Source: Escherichia phage Bp7. From it: a DNA stretch of 64,000 nt. The translations under genes and the position numbers were made by a program. The stretch's first letter is position 1, and each line of letters starts with the position of its first letter. The notes under the pieces were generated by a model. That model ran no database searches. It saw only the letters and a program-made list of their open reading frames with translations, and was not told where the DNA came from. Positions 3,273-36,293 of this stretch are shown piece after piece. Location: sequence record NC_019500.1, one strand, 5' to 3'.

Positions 3273-4421
3273 ATGATTGAATTATATGATAACTTGATGG
3301 CCCTGGTTAAAAACTCGACTAAATCTAAGTTCTTCTTTAAAGACTTTCAGAGTGCGCTAGGAGTCAACTATCGCATCTTTAGTTATAACTATGCCTCGTA
3401 CAGTGATTGGTTGGAAGACGGCGCGCTAGAGGGCCGAGGCATTATGTTTGAAATGGACGAGAACGGTCCAGTACGTATTGCTGCTCGTCCTATGCAAAAG
3501 TTCTTTAACCTTGACGAAAACCCTCTGACCATCGGTCTAGATTTGTCACCAGAAAATATTGACCTCGTAATGGCTAAGGAAGATGGTTCTCTGATTTCTA
3601 CATTCATGGACCGACAGTATCTTTCTGTTAAATCTAAAGGCTCTATCCATTCATCAATGGTGCATGATTCTTTACGGTTCCTTCGTCTCCCTGAGAACGA
3701 GGCTTTTGCCGCACGTCTAGAAGAAATCACCAAAGCTGGGTATACCTGCAACCTTGAATATGTAGCACCTACCAACCGTATCGTTCTGGCTTACCAAGAA
3801 ACAAACCTCATCCTGTTGAACGTTCGTAATAATGAAACAGGTGAATATATTCCGTATGCTGAATTGTTTAAAGATGGTGCCCTGCGTAAGCATTTGGTTG
3901 AAAGCTATGACCTCGCTGAAGGTGATTTCGTAGAAAACATCCGTAAACAAGAAGGTATTGAAGGTTTCATCTTTGTACTGAAAGATGGTACGTTCTTTAA
4001 ACTCAAAACCGCCTGGTACAGTGCACTGCACCATACCAAAGATTCCATTAACAATAACGAACGTTTGTTTGAAGTTGTAGTGGCTGGTGGAACTGATGAC
4101 CTTCGTGGATTGTTCAGTACAGATTCGTTTGCTATCGAGAAAATCGATGCCTTTGAACGTATCCATTTAGATTACTTAGAACAATCATTAGCCTTGTTAG
4201 AAGCAGCGTACTCCCAACTTAAGGGTCGCGACCGTAAGGACTACGCCGTTACTGGTCAACTAATCCTTAAGGACTTTCCAGGGTTGTTCTCTATTCTTAT
4301 GCAGGCGTACGTAGGCGGCATTAATTATGATACGGTCATGGACCAGATTAACTCTGTGTTCTTGAAAAACCATAAAGCCCAAATCCCTGAAAAATATTTG
4401 AAAGAAATTGTGGTAGAGTAG
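3273..4421 (+). CDS. rnlA: RNA ligase 1 (gene 63, tail fiber attachment catalyst)
   Basis: 382 aa; YRIFSYNYASYSDWL...ALEGRGIMFEMD...KEDGSL motifs matching T4 RnlA. Confidence 0.85.
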   Translation: MIELYDNLMALVKNSTKSKFFFKDFQSALGVNYRIFSYNYASYSDWLEDGALEGRGIMFEMDENGPVRIAARPMQKFFNLDENPLTIGLDLSPENIDLVMAKEDGSLISTFMDRQYLSVKSKGSIHSSMVHDSLRFLRLPENEAFAARLEEITKAGYTCNLEYVAPTNRIVLAYQETNLILLNVRNNETGEYIPYAELFKDGALRKHLVESYDLAEGDFVENIRKQEGIEGFIFVLKDGTFFKLKTAWYSALHHTKDSINNNERLFEVVVAGGTDDLRGLFSTDSFAIEKIDAFERIHLDYLEQSLALLEAAYSQLKGRDRKDYAVTGQLILKDFPGLFSILMQAYVGGINYDTVMDQINSVFLKNHKAQIPEKYLKEIVVE

Positions 4422-10129: not shown

Positions 10130-10378
10130 ATGAACAAACAATTGAATCACGCTCTTGAACTGCAACGCAACGCTTGGAACAACGGTCACGAAAACTACGG
10201 CGCATCTATTGATGTTGAAGCCGAAGCACTGGAAATCCTGCGTTATTTCAAACATCTGAATCCTGCTCAGGCTACTCTGGCTGCTGAACTGGAAGCTAAA
10301 GATGAACTGAAATTTGCTAAGCCTTTGGCTTCAGCAGCTCGTAAAGCAGTACGTCATTTTATTATTACCCTGAAGTAA
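10130..10378 (+). CDS. rIII: Lysis inhibition accessory protein rIII
   Basis: 82 aa; MNKQLNHALELQRNAWNNGHENYGASIDVEAEALEILRYF matches T4 rIII. Confidence 0.85.
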   Translation: MNKQLNHALELQRNAWNNGHENYGASIDVEAEALEILRYFKHLNPAQATLAAELEAKDELKFAKPLASAARKAVRHFIITLK

Positions 10379-10410
10379 ATTAAATCGAGGAGCCGTCGAA
10401 CTGTTTGATT

Positions 10411-10437
10411 AATGATTTGCGAATCATTATAGTTTTA
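10411..10437 (+). terminator. Hairpin AATGATT-tgcg-AATCATT followed by U-rich stretch
   Basis: Inverted repeat seen directly. Confidence 0.35.
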
Positions 10438-10641
10438 AGACCCCAACAGTTTTACGGTGTACCTCTTGAATGTATTTTGTACTATCACGCGTCAGAAAAA
10501 GGTTATCTGTCTAAGCCGTGGTCGGTATGATGACGAGGTTTATGGTTATCCTGTCGTTAAATATCCGAAACCTATGTTCCCCTTGAGGGCTTGCGCAGGC
10601 AACGCCAATAAGTCCTGCATCCTAATTTAAGAGATTTAAAA

Positions 10642-10803
10642 ATGGCTAAGAAAGAAGTTAAAGTAGTTGACGGTACCTCTAAACGCGCTGGTTACAAGCG
10701 TGCGTCCAACAAGCGTATCAATCAGGTAGTTGATAAGCTTCAAGCTCGTGCTCGTGCAGTATTGCGTGCAGATGCTGCTTGCTTTGGTAAGCCTCAGGCA
10801 TAA
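10642..10803 (+). CDS. Small basic hypothetical protein (53 aa)
   Basis: MAKKEVKVVDGTSKRAGYKRASNKRINQVVDKLQARARAVLRADAACFGKPQA; RBS aagag 8 nt upstream; followed by strong terminator. Confidence 0.45.
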   Translation: MAKKEVKVVDGTSKRAGYKRASNKRINQVVDKLQARARAVLRADAACFGKPQA

Positions 10804-10808
10804 GTTAT

Positions 10809-10837
10809 GGGACTCTTCGGAGTCCCATTTTTGTTTC
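10809..10837 (+). terminator. Rho-independent terminator GGGACTCTTCGGAGTCCC + T-tract
   Basis: Perfect hairpin plus T run. Confidence 0.6.
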
Positions 10838-10854
10838 TAAATCTTTAAAAAAGG

Positions 10855-10883
10855 GTGTACATCTCCGGTAGGCATGATACTAT
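10855..10883 (+). promoter_or_regulatory. Putative early promoter (GTGTAC, 17 nt, TACTAT)
   Basis: Motif match. Confidence 0.45.
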
Positions 10884-10927
10884 AGACATGTACCAAATAA
10901 TACGAAAACAAACTGGAGAATAAAATG
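10881..10927 (+). repeat. 47-nt promoter/leader cassette, copy 1 (TATAGACaTGTACCAAATAATACGAAAACAAACTGGAGAATAAAATG)
   Basis: 46/47 identity with 11287..11333. Confidence 0.9.
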
Positions 10928-11257
10928 AAAACTGTAAATCTGAATGCATCTGTTAAAGCTAAATGTTTCAACGGTGAATATCAAGAAACCATGTGGGTCC
11001 TGACTGCAGTTGAAGGTGATATCATCGAAGTTGAAACAACTGAAGGTATGGGTACTGATTTTACATTCACCATCGAGCTTCACAACTTCTTTACAGGTTG
11101 GATTTATGAACTGAAAACTGTAATTACTGGTCGTATTGAAGAAAACAAAAATGGTGAATTCTATTATGTTAATGCCCGTACACGTGCTGAACGTCTGATT
11201 GCTCAGATGAAAAAAGTTGGTAAACTTGATATGAAAAATTGGAATGTTGTGAAATAA
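10925..11257 (+). CDS. Hypothetical protein
   Basis: 110 aa ORF preceded by conserved leader and RBS ggaga. Confidence 0.55.
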   Translation: MKTVNLNASVKAKCFNGEYQETMWVLTAVEGDIIEVETTEGMGTDFTFTIELHNFFTGWIYELKTVITGRIEENKNGEFYYVNARTRAERLIAQMKKVGKLDMKNWNVVK

Positions 11258-11260
11258 ATG

Positions 11261-11289
11261 TTTTACTTTGGTACAGGTTGTGTTATTAT
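11261..11289 (+). promoter_or_regulatory. Putative early promoter (TTTTAC, 17 nt, TATTAT) inside hairpin GGTACAGG/CCTGTACC
   Basis: Motif match. Confidence 0.45.
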
Positions 11290-11333
11290 AGACCTGTACC
11301 AAATAATACGAAAACAAACTGGAGAATAAAATG
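11287..11333 (+). repeat. 47-nt promoter/leader cassette, copy 2
   Basis: 46/47 identity with 10881..10927. Confidence 0.9.
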
Positions 11334-11696
11334 AACTACATCAACTTCGAACGTAAATATGTTTCTAACGGTATCGCTGGTTCTTCTGAAGTTATTTGCC
11401 TGTGGAAACACAACAACGGCGCGGTGTGCGAAATCGAACAGTGCATGACTCCTAACTACGTTTATATGCGCTTTGAAAATGGTATTACGGTTTCAATCAC
11501 AATGGAAGGTTCTACTTTTAAAATCGCTTTAGATGATGATTTCCGTCAACGTGATTTAGGTACCCATCCTTGCTGGAACGGTTCTAATCGTAAGCTTCTG
11601 GTTAAAACCTGGATTCGTCACATCCTGAGCAACCGAGCTAAACCTGAACACCTGGAAGCAATCTTTGATGTAGTTCTGAATGAATTCGATATCTAA
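11331..11696 (+). CDS. Hypothetical protein
   Basis: 121 aa ORF preceded by same leader. Confidence 0.55.
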   Translation: MNYINFERKYVSNGIAGSSEVICLWKHNNGAVCEIEQCMTPNYVYMRFENGITVSITMEGSTFKIALDDDFRQRDLGTHPCWNGSNRKLLVKTWIRHILSNRAKPEHLEAIFDVVLNEFDI

Positions 11697-11739
11697 TCTT
11701 AAAAATGGAGGCTTCGGCCTCCTTTGAGGAAAATATTAT

Positions 11740-12025
11740 GTTTATGACCACTTATTTTGATACTCGTAAAAATTTCTGTGAAGTTGTTTTCTCTAAAGCA
11801 GGTAAAGATGTTCCTGCCGACAAACAACCTACTCGTGAATCTATTAAGGCTTATGCCGATGTTGTATGCCCGGTAGAATTCCGTACTGTTAATGGTCGTG
11901 ATACCCTAGCAATCACTAAGCTAAACCATGATATCAATATCGACCCAAGTGTCGCCCGTGAAGTCAATACCTCTGACATCTATGGTGGTAATGTTAAATC
12001 ACATGGCTTTCAGATGAGGTTCTAA
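11740..12025 (+). CDS. Hypothetical protein
   Basis: ORF with RBS gagga upstream of ATG 11740. Confidence 0.45.
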
Positions 12026-12219
12026 TGCAACTATTCTTATCACAAACTGTTCAGCTAAAAGGTGTAGGTATTCCTGGAATGATTTCAAAGGTTCTACCTG
12101 CTTTTAAATTAGGTAATGTTACTATTAAAGAAGCCTACACCGTCCTATGGGTCGATGGAACTGAAGATGTTCGCATGGGTGGTGAACTGTCTGTAATCAA
12201 ATGTTTAAAGCGAGGATAA
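12025..12219 (+). CDS. Hypothetical protein
   Basis: 64 aa ORF, start overlaps upstream stop. Confidence 0.4.
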   Translation: MQLFLSQTVQLKGVGIPGMISKVLPAFKLGNVTIKEAYTVLWVDGTEDVRMGGELSVIKCLKRG

Positions 12220-12436: not shown

Positions 12437-12887
12437 GTTAGAAATCAGAAGTAATTTTCCGTGGCCATCGTGTGCATTAAGTAACTTTGCTAAATGGCCT
12501 TTCGTTATGGATGGTATCCAATTTGGAGGGCTCGAAGGATTCCTCCAAGGGTGTAAGGTGAGAAATCATGAACAACAAAAACGTATATTTGGGATGTCCG
12601 GTCTGGCCGCACAACAAACTGGAAGAGCTTATGCAAGAGCTGCGGACCGTGGGACGCTTTTCTGGCTTGGAATTCCCTTTTCAAGATACTCTACATCATG
12701 GAAAGAGTTGTATACAAATGCATATTTTGAAGCAGCGCTCCAAAACAAAGGATTCCGCGACGCATTACAAGCTACAAAGGGCAAAGTTTTAAAGCATTCG
12801 ATGGCGAGCCACCTTACAGAATGTGATACAATACTAACTGAAAAAGAGTTTATCGACATCCTAAACAAATTGAGAGATTTATTATGA
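12420..12887 (+). CDS. NADAR/YbiA-like (DUF1768) domain protein, tentative
   Basis: 155 aa; pattern ...LSNF...F..DG..F...EGFLQ..K... resembles YbiA/NADAR family; assignment from motif memory only. Confidence 0.45.
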   Translation: MSKMSELEIRSNFPWPSCALSNFAKWPFVMDGIQFGGLEGFLQGCKVRNHEQQKRIFGMSGLAAQQTGRAYARAADRGTLFWLGIPFSRYSTSWKELYTNAYFEAALQNKGFRDALQATKGKVLKHSMASHLTECDTILTEKEFIDILNKLRDLL

Positions 12888-13523: not shown

Positions 13524-13802
13524 ATGTTTGTAGTTCATACAATTTCAGACTATGGTCCTACCACTACAATGGATTATGGTCATGTAAACCAGTTTATTCG
13601 TCATGTGAATCATGATTACTCATTTGATGTAAATCCGGCTAAAGACCATCCTGTTTGGCGCGAATGCGTCGAACAGGGATTCATTTATGTCCACTTTATG
13701 TCCAAGTTCAAATCTGATGGGCGAATGAGATTTGTGTTCTCTTATCATAAGCGATTAGACTTGCTTTTGGCTGATGTGGCTTATAATAGAATCCATGACT
13801 AA
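13524..13802 (+). CDS. Hypothetical protein
   Basis: ORF from internal ATG following HAD-like gene stop. Confidence 0.4.
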   Translation: MFVVHTISDYGPTTTMDYGHVNQFIRHVNHDYSFDVNPAKDHPVWRECVEQGFIYVHFMSKFKSDGRMRFVFSYHKRLDLLLADVAYNRIHD

Positions 13803-13812
13803 TGAGGTGATT

Positions 13813-15336
13813 ATGATTTTAGATATTTTAAACGAAATTGCTGCTATTGATTCTACTAAAGCTAAAGAAGCCATTATTGCTCGTGAAAAGGACAATGAGC
13901 TTCTGAAACGTGTTTATCGTATGGCTTATACCCGTCGTCTGAACTACGGTATTAAAAAGTGGCCAGAACCTGGATTTACATCTCAATCCTTTGGTATGAT
14001 TACTCTTGAAGACCTTCTTGATTTCGCTGAATTCACATTAGCCACACGTAAGATTACGGGTAATGCGGCTATTGAAGAACTGGCTCAAATCATTGCTGAT
14101 GCTAAGGCCCCGGATGCCGAGGTATTACGTCGTGTAATGATGCGCGACCTTGAATGTGGTGCATCGATTTCTATTGCTAACAAGGTTTGGAAAGGTTTAA
14201 TCCCTGAACAACCGCAGATGTTGGCGAGTTCTTATGATGAAGCTTTGATTAAGAAAAATATTAAATGGCCAGCGTTTGCTCAATTAAAAGCTGATGGCGC
14301 TCGTTGTTTTGCTGAAGTTCGTAACGATGGTGTGACATTCCTTACTCGTGGTGGTAATGAATATCAAGGGCTTAATCTTTTGGCGGCTGAATTAATGGCC
14401 ATGACCGAAGAAGCTCGCCAGCGCCATCCTAATGGTGTTATGATTGACGGTGAATTAGTTTACCATACTCCTAAGGTAGAACCTAAAGCATCTAATGATT
14501 TGTTTAGTATGTTTGATGAGGAACTTCCTGAATTAAGTAAGGCTAAGGAATTCCAAACTGTCGCCGATCGTTCTACGTCAAATGGATTGGCTAATAAGGC
14601 TCTTCAAGGAACTATTACTCCAGCCGAAGCAGCCGGTATGGTATTACAGGCGTGGGATTATGTCCCATTGGATGTCGTATATTCCGAAGGTAAAATTAAA
14701 GGCGATAAGTATGATGTACGCTTTACAGCCTTAGAACTTATGGTTGCTCATAATGTCGTATTGCATGGTGCAACGCGTGTTGAAGCTATCGAAAACCAGT
14801 GGGTTAATAATCTTGAAGAAGCTAAAGTTGTTTATAAGAAATATGTCGACCAGGGCCTGGAAGGCATTATCCTTAAGAACATGGACTCCTACTGGGAAAA
14901 CCGCCGTTCTAAGAATCTTATCAAGTTCAAAGAAGTAATCGATATTGCTTTAGAAGTGGTAGGTTATTATGAACACTCGAAGGACCCTAACAAACTTGGT
15001 GGTGTCGAGTTGGTATCGCGTTGTCGTCGAATTACAAGTGACTGCGGTTCAGGCTTTAAAGATACCACCCATAAGAAAGATAAATCAGGTAAAAAGGTAT
15101 TAATTCCATTGGAAGACCGTCCTGATTTAGACCGTGAACTTCTTATGAAACAAGCTCGTGAAGGTAAGTTGATTGGACGTATTGCTGACTGTGAATGTAA
15201 TGGTTGGGTTCATTCTAAAGGACGTACTGATACTGTAGGTATTTTCCTTCCAATCATTAAAGGTTGGCGTTTCGATAAAACAGAAGCTGATACATTTGAA
15301 GATGTATTCGGTGATTGGTCTCAAACTGGTCTATAA
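13813..15336 (+). CDS. 30: ATP-dependent DNA ligase gp30
   Basis: MILDILNEIAAIDSTKAKEAIIAREKDNELLKRVY...; adenylation KADGAR motif; C-terminus FEDVFGDW; matches T4 ligase. Confidence 0.9.
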   Translation: MILDILNEIAAIDSTKAKEAIIAREKDNELLKRVYRMAYTRRLNYGIKKWPEPGFTSQSFGMITLEDLLDFAEFTLATRKITGNAAIEELAQIIADAKAPDAEVLRRVMMRDLECGASISIANKVWKGLIPEQPQMLASSYDEALIKKNIKWPAFAQLKADGARCFAEVRNDGVTFLTRGGNEYQGLNLLAAELMAMTEEARQRHPNGVMIDGELVYHTPKVEPKASNDLFSMFDEELPELSKAKEFQTVADRSTSNGLANKALQGTITPAEAAGMVLQAWDYVPLDVVYSEGKIKGDKYDVRFTALELMVAHNVVLHGATRVEAIENQWVNNLEEAKVVYKKYVDQGLEGIILKNMDSYWENRRSKNLIKFKEVIDIALEVVGYYEHSKDPNKLGGVELVSRCRRITSDCGSGFKDTTHKKDKSGKKVLIPLEDRPDLDRELLMKQAREGKLIGRIADCECNGWVHSKGRTDTVGIFLPIIKGWRFDKTEADTFEDVFGDWSQTGL

Positions 15337-15574: not shown

Positions 15575-17659
15575 ATGACCGAACAATTAAATGAAGTGTT
15601 TGAGTCCGAAGGCACACTGCCTACAGTAAACTTGAACCCAAAACTTAAAGTACCCCAGATTTGGAAGATTGGTGACGCAGAATCCCAATTAGTGGCGCGT
15701 ATGGTATCCTACGCTTCTGAAGGTGATGCTATTAAACAGGTTAAGATGGGTGATAAATATGCCCACGTTATCCTTATGAGCCTTTCAGCTAAAGGTTCGC
15801 CTGCCGAACTTAAAGGTGGCCTAGGCCCTACTCCCGTAGATGCGATTAATACTATTTTTGATGTGGTTTATGACCAAGTTAAAAAGCTTCGTATGGATGC
15901 CGTGATGTTCCGTTTCCCTACTAAGAAAATGAAAGGTCAAGGCCCTATCGTTCAACGGATTATCCAACGTTTGGTAGCACAGAAAACAGGTGGACGTTTT
16001 AAAGTAGTTCCGGCTATGTACCAATTTACCGGTAAACATACTTATATCCTAGTAGTTCGTAAACAGGCTGATATCGAAGATATCAAAGGTATGCCAGGAA
16101 TTAATGCCGAATTATACACTAAGGTAGATTCTGATGTCGGTGAAGTTTATATTTCTAAAAAAGAAGGCGTGCAGGTTACTAAAGAAACTGCTATTGCCGG
16201 CAGTATTGCTAAAGTTGAAGAACGTCGCACTGATAAAATGGTTATAACCAAGACTAAGATTTCTCGTCGTGCCATTGCAGCAAGTCAATCGTTAGAATCT
16301 TATCGTAATGAAAGTGAACTGTTTAAGAAATATGAAGCAAATGCCGTAGATTTTAATAAACCTGCAACAGCTCCATTAATCCCTGAGGCCCAGGAAATGG
16401 TTACTAATAACAATTCTCCCGCGGCTAAAAATAAGGTTGCTAATATAGTAGCTGAAGGTACTGCTGAAGAATTGCATTATGATTATAAAATGTTTCCTCT
16501 TCACGGTATAGGTGAAATCCAAGAGAAAATTAAAGATAAAATTCTTGCGGCCATCAAAAACGAACCTTTGACATCTGTTAAAGCTCTAGAAAAATATGCC
16601 TCTGCTATTAATACCGTTTTCGAAGAATACAAAGGTGAATGGCTGGCCCGGCATAACAAAACTCGTAAAGGCCAACCTGACGACCTCTGGAATGAATTGA
16701 CCGATGCGAAGTGGAAAGCCGCCAAGACCAAGTTCATTAAAAAACGTGTATATAGTTTTGCCGGTGTAGGTGGCGGTATTATGGTCGATATTACTATTGC
16801 TCGTGAGGGCTCTAAATATACCCCATCACAAAAGCGCGGCATCAGAGAATATTGTGGCTCAGGATATACAGACATAAATAATCTTCTTTTAGGACGCTAT
16901 AACCCTCAGAACTATGAGGTTATGGGCGAAAAAGATATCGAATCTGCAGTTAATAATTTGGATTCTGCTTTTGAAAATGGCGACCGTATACCAGAAGGCA
17001 TCACAGTTTATCGTGCACAGAGTATGACTGCTCCTATATACGAAGCACTAGTTAAAAATAAAGTGTTCTATTTCAGAAATTTTGTATCCACTTCATTGAC
17101 TCCTATCATTTTTGGACGTTTTGGTGTTACACACGCCGGTATCGGTCTTTTAGAACCGGAAGTTCGCGATGAATTGACAGTCGATAAAAATGAAGAAGGA
17201 ATAACTATTAATCCTAATGAAATAAGAGCATATAAAGAAAATCCTGATTATGTTAAAGTTCAAATAGGATGGGCTATTGATGGGGCTCATAAAGTTAATG
17301 TCGTATATCCAGGAAATCTCGGAATAGAAACTGAAGCCGAAGTTATTCTACCGCGTGGATTAATGGTCAAAGTTAATAAAATAACAGATGCTTCTAATAA
17401 TGATGGAACAACATCTAGTAATACAAAACTCATCCAAGCTGAAGTTATGACAACAGATGAGCTTCAAGAATCTGTGGTATATGATGGTGACGTACTAATG
17501 GAAACCGGCGAGTTGGTCGTATATAAAGATGACTTCGATACTTCCGAAAGCCCTGTATCTTTTGATTCATTTGTTAAATCTACACGGTTTGATGTATTGC
17601 CTCTTTTGGCTTCATGCATAGACCTCTATGACATCCCAGAAAAATTCATCCAAGGGTAA
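15575..17659 (+). CDS. alt: ADP-ribosyltransferase Alt (copy 1)
   Basis: 694 aa; C-terminal ART domain (RGIREYCGSGYTDINNLL..., YRAQ..., FVSTS); size and position match T4 Alt. Confidence 0.85.
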   Translation: MTEQLNEVFESEGTLPTVNLNPKLKVPQIWKIGDAESQLVARMVSYASEGDAIKQVKMGDKYAHVILMSLSAKGSPAELKGGLGPTPVDAINTIFDVVYDQVKKLRMDAVMFRFPTKKMKGQGPIVQRIIQRLVAQKTGGRFKVVPAMYQFTGKHTYILVVRKQADIEDIKGMPGINAELYTKVDSDVGEVYISKKEGVQVTKETAIAGSIAKVEERRTDKMVITKTKISRRAIAASQSLESYRNESELFKKYEANAVDFNKPATAPLIPEAQEMVTNNNSPAAKNKVANIVAEGTAEELHYDYKMFPLHGIGEIQEKIKDKILAAIKNEPLTSVKALEKYASAINTVFEEYKGEWLARHNKTRKGQPDDLWNELTDAKWKAAKTKFIKKRVYSFAGVGGGIMVDITIAREGSKYTPSQKRGIREYCGSGYTDINNLLLGRYNPQNYEVMGEKDIESAVNNLDSAFENGDRIPEGITVYRAQSMTAPIYEALVKNKVFYFRNFVSTSLTPIIFGRFGVTHAGIGLLEPEVRDELTVDKNEEGITINPNEIRAYKENPDYVKVQIGWAIDGAHKVNVVYPGNLGIETEAEVILPRGLMVKVNKITDASNNDGTTSSNTKLIQAEVMTTDELQESVVYDGDVLMETGELVVYKDDFDTSESPVSFDSFVKSTRFDVLPLLASCIDLYDIPEKFIQG

Positions 17660-19714
17660 ATGATGGAAAATTTAAACGAAGTTTTTGATAGCGATTCCGC
17701 TAAAAACTATCCAGTAATAAATCTTAAACCAGGTTCCGGTATCCCACAGATTTTCTCTATTAAAGCACCGGGTAATGATAACCTGGTTGCTCGTATGGTA
17801 TCTTATGCGTCTCAAGGAGACGCTATTAAAATGGTTAAGCCGGGCGACAAATATGTCCACGTTATTCTAATGAGTTTGTCAAGCAAGGGTGCTCCGGCTG
17901 AACTCAAAGGTGGTCTTGGTTCTGACCCACTCGGTACGCTGAATACCATTTTTGATACTGTATACGAACAAGTAAACAAACTTAAAATGGATGCGGTTTT
18001 ATTCCGTTTCCCTACCAAGAAAATGAAAGGTAAGGGCCCTACTGTTCAGCGTGTATTAGCTCGTTTGGCTATGGCTCGTACTGGTGGTAAGTTTAAAGTT
18101 GTTGATGCCATGTACCAATTCACTGGAAAACATACCTATGTTCTTTTAGTACGTCGTGGCACTAATATTGAAGATATCAAGGGTATGCCTGAAATTGATG
18201 CCGAACTTTATACTAAGGTTGAGTCCAAAGTTGGCGAAGTTTATGTTTCTAAGGAAACCGGCCAGTCCGTAAGTAAGGCCGAAGCTGTCTCGGCAAGTAT
18301 AGCTAAGGTTGAAGAGAAACGTACTGATAAGGCCGTCATTACCAAGACTAAGATTTCTCGTCGTGCTATTGCTATGTCGCAATCCTTAGAATCGTCACGA
18401 TTTGAAACTCCTATGTTTAAGAAATTTGATTCTAATGCTGCTGAATTGAATAAACCGGCTACGGCTCCTTTAATGTCAGAAGCAAATGAAATAAAGGTTA
18501 TTTCTAATTCTTTCTTGGCTTTAGAAAATACCATTAGTGCTAATACTGGTGGTATGTCGTTTAAAGACAACCTTCTTATTCCAGAAGATAAAATGGAAGA
18601 AATTAATACCGACATAAAAATGAGAGCTTTTGAGAAATTACATGGATTAAATGTGACTTCAGTAAAAGCCCTAGAAAATTATGCTTCAGTGGTTGATGAC
18701 GTCATCGAAGAATATAAAGGTCCTTGGCTTCAAAAGCTAATGGCTCAACATTCACACCTAGGTTATCACGAAGCAGTCGAGTTGGCTGAAAATTCTTGGA
18801 ATGCTATAAAGACCAAAATTATTCAACGTGAGCTGCGTGTTTACGCTCTTACCGCCGGTTGGCAATTGCATTCTATTATAGAAAATAAAGACGCGTCTCG
18901 TTATACTCCTGCCCAGAAACGTGGTATTCGTGAATATGTTGGCTCCGGTTACGAAGATATGAATAATGTTCTTTTAGGTCTCCATGACCCGAATGTAAGA
19001 AGCAGTATTCTGACTAATGAAGACATAGAAAAAGCTATCAATAACTTAGATTCTGCTTTTGAAAATGGCGAACGTCTACCACCAGGTATTACTCTTTATC
19101 GTTCCCAACGAATGATTCCTGATATTTACTTGGCTATGATTAGCAATAAAGTATTCTATTTCAGAAACTTTGTTTCAACTGCGATATATCCGAATATTTT
19201 TGGTACATGGATGACTGATTCTGGTGTTGGTCTTTTGCCTGACGAAAAACGTCGTGATGTTGCATTAGACAAATCGGATGAAGGTTTAGTATATTCGAAT
19301 AAAGATACTTTAGTAGGTATTGGTTGGGCCTTTACCGGTACAGATAAGGTAAATGTCGTTTTACCTGGTGGAGACTTGGCTCCTTCTAACGAAATGGAAG
19401 TAATTCTTCCTAGGGGTTTGATGGTCAAAATCAATAAAATTACAGATGCTTCATACAATAACGGAACTACTCGTTCTAACAATAAGTTCGTTCAAGCCGA
19501 AGTAATGACTGCAGACGAACTTAATGAAGCCGTGGTGTACGATGGTGATGCTCTGATGGAAACAGGCGAACTAGTTGTCTATAAAGAGGGTAATGAGCTT
19601 TCTTTTGATTCTTTTGTTTCTAATGAGAAGAAAAAGAAATCAGACAGAGGTCTTGGCTTGTTAGCTTCTTGTATAGATATCGACGCTCTCCAGTATAAAT
19701 TTGTACAAGGGTAG
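17660..19714 (+). CDS. ADP-ribosyltransferase Alt paralog (copy 2)
   Basis: 684 aa; collinear similarity to copy 1 along full length (e.g. RMVSYAS.GDAIK, RGIREYVGSGYEDMNNVLLG). Confidence 0.85.
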   Translation: MMENLNEVFDSDSAKNYPVINLKPGSGIPQIFSIKAPGNDNLVARMVSYASQGDAIKMVKPGDKYVHVILMSLSSKGAPAELKGGLGSDPLGTLNTIFDTVYEQVNKLKMDAVLFRFPTKKMKGKGPTVQRVLARLAMARTGGKFKVVDAMYQFTGKHTYVLLVRRGTNIEDIKGMPEIDAELYTKVESKVGEVYVSKETGQSVSKAEAVSASIAKVEEKRTDKAVITKTKISRRAIAMSQSLESSRFETPMFKKFDSNAAELNKPATAPLMSEANEIKVISNSFLALENTISANTGGMSFKDNLLIPEDKMEEINTDIKMRAFEKLHGLNVTSVKALENYASVVDDVIEEYKGPWLQKLMAQHSHLGYHEAVELAENSWNAIKTKIIQRELRVYALTAGWQLHSIIENKDASRYTPAQKRGIREYVGSGYEDMNNVLLGLHDPNVRSSILTNEDIEKAINNLDSAFENGERLPPGITLYRSQRMIPDIYLAMISNKVFYFRNFVSTAIYPNIFGTWMTDSGVGLLPDEKRRDVALDKSDEGLVYSNKDTLVGIGWAFTGTDKVNVVLPGGDLAPSNEMEVILPRGLMVKINKITDASYNNGTTRSNNKFVQAEVMTADELNEAVVYDGDALMETGELVVYKEGNELSFDSFVSNEKKKKSDRGLGLLASCIDIDALQYKFVQG

Positions 19715-33710: not shown

Positions 33711-33738
33711 AGGGACCGTAAGGTCCCTTTTATTTTTC
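33711..33738. terminator. Bidirectional terminator AGGGACCGTAAGGTCCCT + T-tract
   Basis: Hairpin between convergent rnlB and gene 24 paralog. Confidence 0.6.
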
Positions 33739-35010
33739 TAAAGGCGGTAATTTTACGCCGAGATAAGAACTCAATTGACTTTGATTAGCCATTTTGTCCA
33801 TATCAGAACCATCAATAATGCGGGCTTCTTTATCGTCCTTAGCGACGGTATAAGGGTTTGCAGTCAATGCATAACGAGCAAGCAATGCTACTGTAGGTTG
33901 TAAGCTTTCCGGGTCAACAATAACCTTAAATTCACCAACTGAAGTATCACCTTCTTCGTCAACCACATTCAAACCTTCCGTATAAGGCGCATAATATAAA
34001 GATGCGACCGTCTGTCCTTCACCCATCTGGGCATTTACACCAACAATAACATAATCACATGGACTATTCATATCAGCATAAAGTGGTAGGCCATTCTTTA
34101 ATATACCATAAGCCAATTCGTCCTGGTCTTCCTTTTTCTCAACCCAACCAGAGGCGGCGAGAATAGCAGCACAACGAGAACTAGCTACTGCATAAGTCCC
34201 GGCAAAAGAAGTCTGTCGTTGGACGGCAGAGTTCATCTCACACATATAATAATATAATGTGCGAGCACGGTCCTGGGCATTATCGTAGCGAGGGTTGGTA
34301 AGGTCTAATACACCCTTTTCAGAAACACCCTGGACTTTAAAACGAGAGCTCACGGTAATTAATGACTGTAATACATCCTTATTAATTTCTTCTGCCATTT
34401 GAATGCCTAGCAGATTTTCAACGAAATTAGGAGCATTAAACCCGTTAGATTCTAGGTCTTGGGCTAATTCGACTGTCAATGAAGTTTTCAGTTTACGTGA
34501 TTTAACTTCAGATTGCCATTTGTCGATGCGGAATCCGGTTTCAGCAATTTCAGGATGGCCTTGTTCAAATTTAGAAGTAATAGCAGCATCCGACACCATA
34601 CGGATATGGCCGGCTGCCACTGCTTCAGAAATAACTTCGCTGAGGTTGGTTTCTGTGGTTCCGGCGAAAGGAGATGCTTCTAGAACTTTAAACACTACGC
34701 TTTCAAACTGGAACATATCACCGACCGCATAAGCTGTAGATGAATCAGTAAATTCTGGAATATTTTCACGTTCCGTCATACCAATCTGGCCCGCAAATGT
34801 TGCTCCACCAAGATAAGTCATTTTGTCGTCAGGGTTCAGTACACGTACCCCATACAGAGCAGCAACCGGTTGATTTGTTTTTTGTTCAGCAACTAGGGCT
34901 TTAAAGATTCGTTTATTAGTTGCTTGGGTGTATGAAAGAAGAGCAGGACGGCCAACCGAGCTGGCAGCCGTCAATGTGGATTCTTTAATTAGGTCTACAA
35001 TCTTAGACAT
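33730..35010 (-). CDS. Capsid vertex protein gp24 paralog (divergent second copy)
   Basis: 426 aa; gp24/gp23-fold conserved blocks (KSRKLKTSLTVELAQDLESNGF, YYAPYTEGL, RYALTANPYTVAKDDKEARIID). Confidence 0.85.
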   Translation of the reverse strand: MSKIVDLIKESTLTAASSVGRPALLSYTQATNKRIFKALVAEQKTNQPVAALYGVRVLNPDDKMTYLGGATFAGQIGMTERENIPEFTDSSTAYAVGDMFQFESVVFKVLEASPFAGTTETNLSEVISEAVAAGHIRMVSDAAITSKFEQGHPEIAETGFRIDKWQSEVKSRKLKTSLTVELAQDLESNGFNAPNFVENLLGIQMAEEINKDVLQSLITVSSRFKVQGVSEKGVLDLTNPRYDNAQDRARTLYYYMCEMNSAVQRQTSFAGTYAVASSRCAAILAASGWVEKKEDQDELAYGILKNGLPLYADMNSPCDYVIVGVNAQMGEGQTVASLYYAPYTEGLNVVDEEGDTSVGEFKVIVDPESLQPTVALLARYALTANPYTVAKDDKEARIIDGSDMDKMANQSQLSSYLGVKLPPLEK

Positions 35011-36293
35011 TAATCAGCCTCGTAAATAATTGCCGGAAGTTTAACGCCAACCAGATAAGACATATTGCTCTGTCCAGCCATTAAATCCATATTGGTTGCA
35101 TCGATAACACGAGCTTCTTTATCGTCTTTAGCCACGGTGTACGGGTTAGCTGATAGTGCATAACGAACCATCAGAGAAATAGAAGGTTGTAATGAATCCG
35201 GGTCAACAATAACCTTATAAGCACCGACGTGTTCTTGGTCATCTAAATCTAAGCCTTCGGTATAGGGAGCGTAGAAAATAGAACCGACAACTTCATTACC
35301 GCCGTAATTCTCTTTAACACCAACGGTAACATAATCTAATGGACTGTTAACGTCACAAAACAGAGGCAGACCATTCAACAAATATCCGTATGCAGTTTCC
35401 GGAAGCCAATTATTATCTTCGGGTTTATGTTTTAACCAGCCAGAACCTGCAAGCATTGCAGCCACACGACTTGAAGCCACAACAAACGTGCCAGAATAAG
35501 AAGTAGTTTTCTGGATTTCAGAATTCATCTCACAAACGAGTTCATAAAGTTTACGTGCAGATTCAGGAGCACTGTCATAAGACAAATCGATGATGCCGTT
35601 ATCAGATACACCAGTAACTTTATAACGTTTGGATACGGTTATTAGAGATTGCAGAACGTCTTTATTAATTTCATCTGCCATTACTGTAGCCAAGAGGTCT
35701 TCTAAGAACGCCGGCGCGTCAAAGCCATTTGATTCCATATCCTGCGCTAATTCTACAGTCAAAGCCGTCTTCAATTTACGGGTCTTAACCGGAGCATTCC
35801 ATTTATTAACCTGGAATACGGCATCAGAGATTTCTACATCACTCGCTTCAAATTTAGTGGTATGGGCAGCATCAGGAACCAGACGACATGTTAATGACAC
35901 TAAACCTTCTTGAAGAGCATCAGCCAATTCTGTGGCGCTAGTGGACGCGAGTGGGCTTGCTTTAAGAGCCTTATAAACCACATTCTGATACTTGAAATAT
36001 TCACCCTGAGCAATCGCCTGGGCCTTATCTGTGAGTTCTGGGATAGTTTCACGGTCTTTAGAACCAACTTCACCACCATAAGAGGCACCTGTCTGGAAAC
36101 TAAATTCATTATCAGGGGTAAGATATTTGACACCATACAGTGCAGCAATAGGCTGGCTAGTACGTTGTTCGGCGATAATATCACGGTAAATCAATTTGGT
36201 TGTAGCACGGGTCAAAGCAACAAGATTAGGGCGACCCAATGAGTTGCTGGAAGTAGTTGTTGACTCGCGCAGTAATTCGTTAATCTTTGCCAT
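35010..36293 (-). CDS. 24: Capsid vertex protein gp24
   Basis: 427 aa; MAKINELLRESTTTSSNSLGRPNLVALTRATTKLIY... matches T4 gp24. Confidence 0.9.
   Translation of the reverse strand: MAKINELLRESTTTSSNSLGRPNLVALTRATTKLIYRDIIAEQRTSQPIAALYGVKYLTPDNEFSFQTGASYGGEVGSKDRETIPELTDKAQAIAQGEYFKYQNVVYKALKASPLASTSATELADALQEGLVSLTCRLVPDAAHTTKFEASDVEISDAVFQVNKWNAPVKTRKLKTALTVELAQDMESNGFDAPAFLEDLLATVMADEINKDVLQSLITVSKRYKVTGVSDNGIIDLSYDSAPESARKLYELVCEMNSEIQKTTSYSGTFVVASSRVAAMLAGSGWLKHKPEDNNWLPETAYGYLLNGLPLFCDVNSPLDYVTVGVKENYGGNEVVGSIFYAPYTEGLDLDDQEHVGAYKVIVDPDSLQPSISLMVRYALSANPYTVAKDDKEARVIDATNMDLMAGQSNMSYLVGVKLPAIIYEAD

Follow-up and report, generated by a model that had tools for sequence, protein, structure and literature searches.

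Gene 30.8 of Escherichia phage Bp7 lies between the two copies of a direct repeat of 47-55 nt, each of which stands downstream of its own putative T4-type early promoter. From sequence comparisons, we consider it very probable that the 30.8 cassette was replaced, from its -10 hexamer to its start codon, by the counterpart of the neighbouring gene 30.7, through homologous recombination in the Dhakavirus lineage. The locus is a clear example of the known recombination between adjacent promoter cassettes, not a new system. The 47-nt duplication itself is specific to Dhakavirus and, as far as could be found, has apparently not been described in the literature.

The whole 64-kb stretch of DNA analysed here (the window) belongs, as judged from sequence identity, to a JS98-like Dhakavirus, a T4-type coliphage. 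The 1.2 kb around the repeat is 99.5% identical to vB_EcoM_IME281 and QL01 and 98% identical to JS98, all coliphages of the genus Dhakavirus (Tevenvirinae). The gene order given by the JS98 annotation is cd, 31.2, 31.1, 31, rIII, 30.9, 30.8, 30.7, 30.6 ... 30 (ligase), and the repeat-bearing locus is part of the variable region that extends from rIII to the ligase gene. Gene 30.9 is located at 10642-10803, gene 30.8 (allele A, plus strand, 110 aa; PF06019, phrog_1507) at 10925-11257, gene 30.7 (plus strand, 121 aa; PF06919, phrog_1582) at 11331-11696 and the ligase gene at 13774-15336. An earlier note on this DNA had described the ORFs 10925-11257 and 11331-11696 as encoding dissimilar proteins, and this is correct: gp30.8 and gp30.7 are unrelated, with a BLASTP E value of 25 and assignment to separate Pfam and PHROG families. 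Two small overlapping or antisense ORFs, 11239-11334 on the plus strand and 10880-11317 on the minus strand, were set aside as spurious. On the 3' side of gene 30.9 there is an intrinsic terminator (10807-10838, plus strand), composed of a GGGACUC-UUCG-GAGUCCC hairpin (10807-10828) and a following U-run. It was reported by the terminator scan, folds as RNA with -15.7 kcal/mol (z -4.3), and its orthologue is annotated as a stem_loop in the TuIa record AJ621579. This terminator probably shields the 30.8 cassette from upstream transcription.

The two 47-nt copies, at 10881-10927 and 11287-11333, are identical at 46 of 47 positions, as the earlier note had observed, and the sole difference is A10888 versus C11294. 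Ungapped extension gives a repeat of 55 nt (10875-10929 and 11281-11335, plus strand) with 52/55 identical positions. In this longer version, copy 1 includes the TGn/-10 element and a transcription start predicted near 10890, followed by a leader about 35 nt long, the Shine-Dalgarno (SD) sequence and the ATG with two further bases; copy 2 represents the leader native to 30.7, and its start is predicted near 11296. The leader, ribosome-binding site (RBS) and start codon earlier ascribed to each copy are indeed there, but the 'TATAGA' at the beginning of the 47-mer is not the -10 hexamer. The 47-mer starts at the fourth base of that hexamer and contains only its last three bases; the whole TGn/-10 is included in the 55-nt version. 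The -35 boxes and spacers are outside the repeat and differ between the two copies. As read from the sequence, it is the leader/RBS half that is duplicated rather than the promoter with its stem-loop. Both copies have GGAG-N6-ATG in common, and RNA folding predicts that both RNAs are unstructured (0 kcal/mol) from the predicted starts to beyond the AUG.

There is no third copy of the 47-nt repeat within the window, and complete Dhakavirus genomes have exactly two places each for the 47-nt leader. When the 47-mer was searched for in the genome and in related phages, as previously suggested, the near-identical repeat was found to be unique to the 30.8/30.7 pair and to form part of a looser cassette family that extends through the genome. 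All early-promoter regions have a general likeness to one another, and nothing else speaks for a coincidental resemblance of two AT-rich intergenic regions or for an error of assembly. The 47-mer has no match in 100 dinucleotide shuffles, and 43 independently sequenced genomes show the same arrangement, which leaves this explanation with practically no probability.

The early promoters of T4 are composed of UP, -35, TGn and -10 elements, with a GTTTAC-like -35, a TAnnAT -10, an upstream A/T tract and an additional consensus after the -10 (PMC2988021). Both copies conform to this description. The predicted promoter PE30.8 (10855-10883, plus strand) has the -35 hexamer GTGTAC (10855-10860), the 17-nt spacer atctccggtaggcatga, and TGn (TG at 10875-10876) followed by the -10 hexamer TACTAT (10878-10883); the A/T-rich tract tctaaatctttaaaaaa is located upstream at 10836-10852. 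The predicted promoter PE30.7 (11261-11289, plus strand) has TTTTAC (11261-11266), a 17-nt spacer, TGn (TG at 11281-11282) and TATTAT (11284-11289), and its A/T-rich tract gtgaaataaatg is at 11249-11260. A pattern of the T4 type (GTTTAC with at most one mismatch, N16-18, TAnnAT, TGn obligatory) occurs eight times in the window, against 0.96 expected. All eight of these TG-extended sites are upstream of ORFs, and six of them are on the plus strand immediately before an SD sequence and ATG. A generic sigma-70 scan (TTGACA/TATAAT) gave no enrichment in the region (14 versus 14.7 expected) and missed PE30.8. PE30.7 is conserved in T4, Mosigvirus and Gaprivervirus, and the spacer and -10 of PE30.8 match the generic Dhakavirus early cassette. 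In the TuIa record AJ621579, deposited by the laboratory that mapped the transcripts of the 30.9-30.5 cluster, the orthologous GTTTAC and TACTAT are given as promoter signals (with the two promoter labels swapped) and GGAG as the RBS; the T4 GenBank records contain no promoter features. The pattern scan and the orthologous TuIa annotation support the earlier proposal that early-type promoters precede both copies. For the genes ahead of ligase gene 30, the early promoters and the processing by RegB were reportedly studied in T4, TuIa and other phages by Truncaite et al. 2006 (Virology 344:378).

A stem-loop is predicted around the -10 of PE30.7 (11267-11303, plus strand). Its arms, TTTGGTACAGGT (11267-11278) and ACCTGTACCAAA (11292-11303), form a perfect 12-bp inverted repeat with a 13-nt loop (-20.2 kcal/mol, z -5.7). 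Since the 5' arm is upstream of the predicted start, the hairpin is possible only on read-through RNA or single-stranded DNA. The sequence directly 3' of the stem is AAAUAAUACG, and the absence of a U-run there indicates that the hairpin is not a canonical terminator; the terminator scan left 11267-11303 unreported, although it did report 10807-10828. Copy 1 contains a corresponding 3' arm, ACATGTACCAAA (10886-10897, plus strand), which is 92% complementary to 11267-11278. The local hairpin of copy 1 is no better than those of shuffled sequences (z -0.8), and the proper 5' partner of its arm is present only upstream of 30.7. Copy 1 thus holds a 3' arm without a partner of its own and is therefore marked as derived from the 30.7 cassette. 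We also considered the A/C difference between the copies as a compensatory change creating a copy 1 hairpin; this was rejected in view of the copy 1 fold and of the occurrence of both A and C with either 30.8 allele.

The 30.9-30.5 cluster of T4 is like that of Dhakavirus in its genes, promoter hexamers and GGAG SD, whereas the 30.8 and 30.7 leaders, near-identical in Dhakavirus, are different sequences in T4. The near-identity is specific to Dhakavirus, because the 30.8 leaders of other genera differ: in T4 and Gaprivervirus the sequence is a different one, and in Mosigvirus it is only partly similar. Between the -10 and the ATG, the 30.8 and 30.7 regions of the same genome are 96-98% identical in Dhakavirus, compared with 67-88% elsewhere. 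Comparison with Gaprivervirus gives 90% identity between the 30.7 leaders of the two genera. The 30.8 leader of Dhakavirus matches the Gaprivervirus 30.7 leader at 86% and its own Gaprivervirus counterpart at only 66%. Among 25 early cassettes (from the window and from 52-72 kb of JS98), the 30.8/30.7 pair is an outlier at 0.945, with the next best pair at 0.76 and a median of 0.37. The promoter half of copy 1 (atctccggtaggcatgaTACTATagac) is of the generic Dhakavirus cassette type (atctccNgtaggcatgaTACTAT). In intact generic cassettes, the arm CTCCTGTAG in the spacer is paired with the arm CTACAGGAG in the leader; copy 1 continues instead with a 30.7-type leader and the orphan arm. Copy 1, composed of a generic promoter and a 30.7-type leader, is therefore a chimera, and the direction of copying was most likely from 30.7 to 30.8.

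The earlier note had suggested recent shuffling, but the duplication is not recent in this genome, as all 43 Dhakavirus-like records carry it. The Mosigvirus 30.8 leader begins with GACTTGTACCA, like a 30.7 leader, so that an older duplication, later re-homogenised in Dhakavirus, is possible. There is no sign of ongoing homogenisation, since the copies gain substitutions independently: a G>T change is found in copy 1 only (QL01/IME281) and an SD variant in copy 2 only (VR5/PSD9). In IME341, both copies have C at the A/C position. Concerted evolution of the leaders in every genus was also considered and rejected, the orthologous leaders of Citrobacter phage Ursula and Karamvirus being 89-94% identical, compared with 88% (Ursula) and 74% (Karamvirus) for the paralogous pair. 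The recombination that we propose would have occurred between short conserved blocks common to all such cassettes. It may have proceeded either by gene conversion or by loss and re-integration of the 30.8 module, both routes being compatible with the data.

The sequence GGAGAATAAAA, which comprises the SD and an exact 11-nt RegB/S1 consensus, is found at 10915-10925 for 30.8 and at 11321-11331 for 30.7 (both plus strand). These two sites, one in each repeat copy, are its only matches in the window. The T4 consensus for efficient RegB/S1 cleavage is GGAGAAUAAAA / GGAGRAYARAA (Durand et al. 2006, PMC1702504), in which GGA is invariant, G is preferred at position 4 and the following A-rich 7-mer is devoid of C, in a single-stranded context (PMC1702504). 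The T4 30.7 mRNA is a known RegB target, cut at the GGAG in its SD region, and serves as a standard substrate (PMC9409239). Both sites of the window agree with the consensus and are predicted to be single-stranded (0 kcal/mol), and each is the SD itself, 6 nt before the ATG. As putative targets, they are like the published RegB/S1 sites in the exact 11-nt match, the predicted single-strandedness of the RNA and the overlap with an early-gene SD. The gene regB is annotated in JS98 (98% identical in the region) and lies outside the window. The last 15 nt of the leader, GGAGAATAAAATGAA, are invariant, before 30.8 as well as before 30.7, in T4, Mosigvirus, Gaprivervirus and Dhakavirus, and this block is nearly identical in more distant genera. 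Even the SD variant of VR5/PSD9, GGATAATAAAA, is still of the GGAU plus strict A-rich type, cleavable by RegB according to the published rules. The identical translational control put forward earlier is thus plausible for the GGAGAATAAAATGAA/SD part, with its identical initiation region and exact RegB/S1 consensus, and corresponds to biology that is already known.

These observations bear on whether the identity of the leaders was kept by selection on a cis-acting element, either a site for a translational regulator or a functional leader RNA, rather than produced by recent copying. Among Dhakaviruses that diverge by up to about 7% in the flanks, the two copies show just 0-2 differences in 47 positions, and the invariance of GGAGAATAAAATGAA for both genes in four T-even-like genera, and nearly so beyond them, would also be expected under selection. 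However, the universally conserved part of the leader is fully explained by the SD and the RegB/S1 consensus, and the 20-25 nt between the start and the SD vary freely between genera for each gene; in T4 and Gaprivervirus they also differ between 30.8 and 30.7. The leader is moreover predicted to be unstructured and matches no Rfam family: a scan of 10300-12100 returned only a chance mir-12 match (19.9 bits versus a threshold of 55, E 0.77). Selection is for these reasons a very unlikely source of the identity, and we retain replacement by the 30.7 cassette. The perfect RegB/S1 site appears as the part of the cassette that never changes, and it ties gene shuffling to a shared shut-off signal.

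Exchange of genes at these cassettes is visible in related phages, and the locus is a demonstrable hotspot for it. On either side of 30.8, IME341 and the window are 96-100% identical; the 30.8 gene of IME341 (allele B) shares only 43-51% identity with that of the window and 90-95% with that of Gaprivervirus. The identity switches inside ACTGGAGAATAAAATGAAAA on the left and inside GTTTACTTTGGTACAGGTT on the right. Allele B is also present in IME08, C6, dhaeg, CLB_P2, PSD9 and others, and allele A is found in 31 of the 43 Dhakavirus-like records; both alleles belong to PF06019. TuIa and Mosigvirus AV109 are without 30.8: the 30.9 terminator and the PE30.8 promoter/leader continue directly into the ORF of 30.7, and the junction falls within GGAGAATAAAATGAA. 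Mosigvirus JM10, also without 30.8, follows Mosigvirus at 96-100% identity as far as the promoter spacer; beyond it, starting with the -10, about 200 bp are 96-98% identical to the window, with a leader identical to copy 2. By these identities, JM10 contains an inter-genus patch that starts at the -10. In Jiaodavirus PKO111, which has no 30.8 either, a generic promoter is joined to a GACCTGTACCA leader and the orphan arm is kept. In Kagamiyamavirus, Marfavirus, Karamvirus, Gelderlandvirus and Ursula, 30.8 and 30.7 are separated by an inserted ORF of about 160 aa.

Losses of 30.8 were searched for with a chimeric query, which exposed the deletions in Mosigvirus and TuIa. Despite the flanking repeats, none of the 43 Dhakavirus-like records has lost the gene (all matched the query in two pieces), and the predicted 406-bp deletion junction has no exact match in IMG/VR. 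The reciprocal (circle or tandem) junction is absent from the Dhakavirus-like records, which are assemblies that could not show circles. Modular shuffling, as suggested in the earlier note, is thus seen in relatives as replacement, deletion and inter-genus patches with junctions in the cassettes, but the duplication is not recent in this genome. Mobility of the cassettes themselves, as mini-circles or by transposition, found no support among the Dhakaviruses in the form of a deletion junction or, within what assemblies can reveal, a circle junction.

The repeats could nevertheless be the ends of a mobile unit: a PeSL mini-circle, composed of 30.8 and one cassette, would have entered a genome without 30.8 through one crossover, thereby duplicating the cassette, and would still excise and integrate. 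Mini-circles between neighbouring PeSLs have been demonstrated in RB49 and phi1 (PMC2839356). The 30.8-less genomes with a single hybrid cassette (TuIa, AV109, JM10 and PKO111) and the presence of two different 30.8 alleles between identical cassettes are also consistent with such a unit. On the other hand, the presence of 30.8 looks ancestral, because T4, Gaprivervirus, Mosigvirus and distant genera all have the gene, each time behind a promoter of its own, and no excision or circle junction is present in IMG/VR or in the 43 Dhakavirus records, whose assemblies could not show circles. We therefore regard a mobile unit as unlikely, although it keeps a real share of the probability, and favour replacement within the Dhakavirus lineage. 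The two explanations differ only in the recombination route.

The hairpin of PE30.7 is conserved in T4, Mosigvirus and Gaprivervirus. Kagamiyamavirus and Kanagawavirus have an equivalent hairpin in the same place, with arms GCUGAUUGAGUGU/ACACUCAAUCAGC; equivalent hairpins are also found in Marfavirus, with arms UUGGUGUAGGAGUAU/GUACUCUUACACCAA, and in Ursula, Karamvirus and Gelderlandvirus, with arms CUCCGUUGUAU/AUACAACGGAG and the SD included. The z values of the hairpins in these distant genera range from -5.5 to -6.8, and those across six lineages, with four different arm sequences, from -3.7 to -6.8. In an alignment of seven hairpin sequences, 90.5% of the cells are paired, three pairs are changed on both sides and two are changed to G-U; slid alignments used as controls pair 27-46%, and three of 500 shuffles reach the observed values. 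All three double-sided changes stem from one sequence. This comparison indicates that the hairpin is kept as a structure, not as a sequence.

On the basis of the sequence and of the orthologous annotation, the host sigma-70 RNA polymerase would start at both promoters just after infection. Both transcripts would begin with an identical leader, A-rich, unstructured and about 35 nt long, that contains GGAG-N6-AUG, and equal and efficient initiation is predicted. Because GGAGAAUAAAA is the optimal RegB/S1 site, both messages would presumably be inactivated together at the early-to-middle switch, as has been shown for the 30.7 message of T4. The -10 hairpin of PE30.7 would form only on read-through RNA from PE30.8 and is probably an attenuator or a 3'-end structure. 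In the DNA itself, crossovers that replace, delete or import genes may fall in the conserved blocks; the candidate blocks are the -35 with the hairpin arm, TGnTAnTATAGAC and GGAGAATAAAATGAA. For the exchange of alleles A and B, the proposed junction blocks are GGAGAATAAAATGAAAA and GTTTACTTTGGTACAGGTT. We infer these functional steps from the sequence together with T4 and TuIa.

A broader interpretation, which we consider quite unlikely, would make the promoter-embedded hairpin a general 'promoter-of-origin' device, the repeats and RBS blocks sites of inter-genus crossover, and the identical leaders a selected co-regulation module. If this were true, read-through RNA would fold and be attenuated, hidden from ribosomes or RegB, or protected at its end, and RNA initiated within the cassette itself would remain open. 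Whole early genes would then move between genera through preferred crossovers in the inverted repeats and RBS blocks, and the leaders of Dhakavirus gp30.8 and gp30.7 would be a co-regulation module, not a neutral recombination scar.

The simpler explanation by cassette replacement already has some general implications. Such phages swap, lose and gain genes by known cassette recombination, and the 30.8/30.7 repeat would be its footprint. This one locus offers an unusually clean natural series for the PeSL idea, with the intact arrangement, a chimeric cassette, the replacement of one allele by another, deletions of at least two independent types and a patch exchanged between genera. The junctions are all readable to within 15-20 bases and are inside defined regulatory blocks. 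For annotation, repeats of this kind in T4-like genomes are better described as promoter/leader cassettes than as novel elements.

Hairpins with a 5' arm upstream of an internal promoter are known for the T4 genes e, soc, 49 and I-TevI (review, PMC3014915). The PE30.7 hairpin is like them in being possible only on read-through RNA, the transcripts from the embedded promoter being without the 5' arm. In contrast, the T4 hairpins hide the SD or AUG, whereas that of PE30.7 stops about 18 nt before the SD, and the embedded promoters are late or middle in T4 and early here. Hairpins that include the SD, as in the T4 type, are found in some related cassettes (Ursula, Karamvirus and generic JS98).

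PeSLs, to which the earlier note had compared the duplicated segments, are small cassettes of the T4-like phages RB49/phi1, PST/T4 and nt-1/KVP40 (Arbiol et al. 2010, PMC2839356; Comeau et al. 2014, PMC4122927). Their early promoter is strong, sigma-70-like and preceded by an A/T-rich tract, a stem-loop spans the -35 and -10 or lies between them, and an SD and ATG stand at the end; they are found in hyperplastic regions before ORFans and are associated with indels and replacements (PMC2839356, PMC4122927). The PeSL promoter of the T4/PST type is TTTACW..TAYWAT with a spacing of about 17 nt (PMC2839356, PMC4122927). The predicted promoters of both copies, GTGTAC-N17-TACTAT and TTTTAC-N17-TATTAT, each with TGn, correspond to this type, and both copies have the A/T-rich tract upstream of the -35 and the 3' SD and start codon. 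Like PeSLs, they form part of a repeated family, the TG-extended cassettes of the window and of 52-72 kb of JS98 sharing spacer, -10 and initial-transcript sequence. The intergenic setting, the stem-loop overlapping the -10, the hyperplastic region and the small genes of unknown function are also PeSL-like, as are the gene replacements and deletions between relatives with junctions in the cassette (alleles A and B, the 30.8-less genomes and the JM10 patch).

There are also differences. The near-identical part here is the transcribed leader/RBS, not the promoter plus stem-loop as in PeSLs, and the stem of PE30.7 is without G-run or C-run and without a U-tract. A stem-loop is present in only one of the copies, copy 2 (12 bp, -20.2 kcal/mol, z -5.7), compared with z -0.8 for copy 1. 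The likeness to PeSLs thus stands for copy 2, for the dispersed cassette family and for the junctions; it does not extend to copy 1, which has no significant stem-loop, or to the duplication as such, which is the leader/RBS half. With these corrections, the interpretation in the earlier note is largely borne out. Copy 2 has every PeSL feature that can be read from sequence, and on this evidence the 30.7 copy alone is a complete PeSL-type cassette.

Gene 30.8 is absent from four natural genomes, those of phages TuIa, AV109, JM10 and PKO111. In all four, the leader and the 30.7 ORF are joined to a promoter half of the 30.8 type. The regions containing the junctions lie at 1–162 in TuIa (AJ621579), 1450–1595 in AV109 (sequence L029), 1450–1750 in JM10 (L028) and 600–703 in PKO111 (L030), and the fusion points are of two types, one at the SD/ATG block and the other at the -10. 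Within JM10, a Mosigvirus genome, a stretch of about 200 bp is Dhakavirus-like.

Gene 30.7 of PSD9 holds a divergent patch (1230–1400 in sequence L024), with 68–80% identity as against 98–100% in the flanks. PSD9 and VR5 also have in common a variant SD region, CCAAAGGATAATAAAATG, restricted to the 30.7 leader (about 1475–1500 in the VR5 sequence, L018). These variants are further small-scale mosaicism at the 30.8/30.7 locus.

The GenBank record of TuIa has the labels minus_10_signal and minus_35_signal interchanged: the -35 is GTTTACTCT at 78–86 and the -10 is TACTAT at 101–106. A second inverted label order is found in the same record at 1164–1170 and 1189–1194.

There is a further promoter-like element, GTGTAC-N17-TACTAT lacking TGn, on the plus strand of the window at 10457–10485, about 160 nt 5' of gene 30.9. 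It has GGTGTAC.TCT in common with the -35 region of PE30.8, the predicted early promoter of gene 30.8, and may be a promoter of 30.9. Between 30.7 and 30.6, a GGAGGC-UUCG-GCCUCC hairpin (11707–11722, plus strand) corresponds to a stem_loop in the TuIa annotation; its GGAG should be resistant to the phage nuclease RegB because it is base-paired. The start of 30.6 is 11705 by ORF listing, which we place inside this hairpin, versus 11738 by the equivalent JS98 annotation.

Generic early cassettes of Dhakavirus have a promoter spacer, CTCCTGTAG, with complementarity to an SD-containing leader segment, CTACAGGAG. Such cassettes occur on the minus strand of the JS98 52–72 kb region (scan positions 12877 and 15185) and in the window at 4421, 19714 and 36336, and the spacer–SD folds have z values of -4.4 to -4.6. 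According to this folding model, the SD would be masked only on read-through RNA, and transcripts from the cassette's own promoter would be unaffected.

Tandem paralogues also occur in the window. Two Alt-like ADP-ribosyltransferases (PF03496; 694 and 684 aa), about 74% identical in DNA, lie immediately 3' of the ligase gene on the plus strand (15575–17659 and 17660–19714). Two capsid proteins of the gp23/gp24 family (PF07068; 426 and 427 aa) are encoded on the minus strand (33730–35010 and 35010–36293); this pair, about 70% identical in DNA across 195 nt, presumably arose by duplication of the vertex protein gene 24.

In distant T4-like genera (L019–L023), an additional ORF (about 160 aa) with a UUCG hairpin in front of it separates the homologues of 30.8 and 30.7. 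The ORF is assigned to phrog_34397 in Ursula and to phrog_18504 in the Karamvirus phage; in Gelderlandvirus STML-198, it appears to be present and 30.8 absent.
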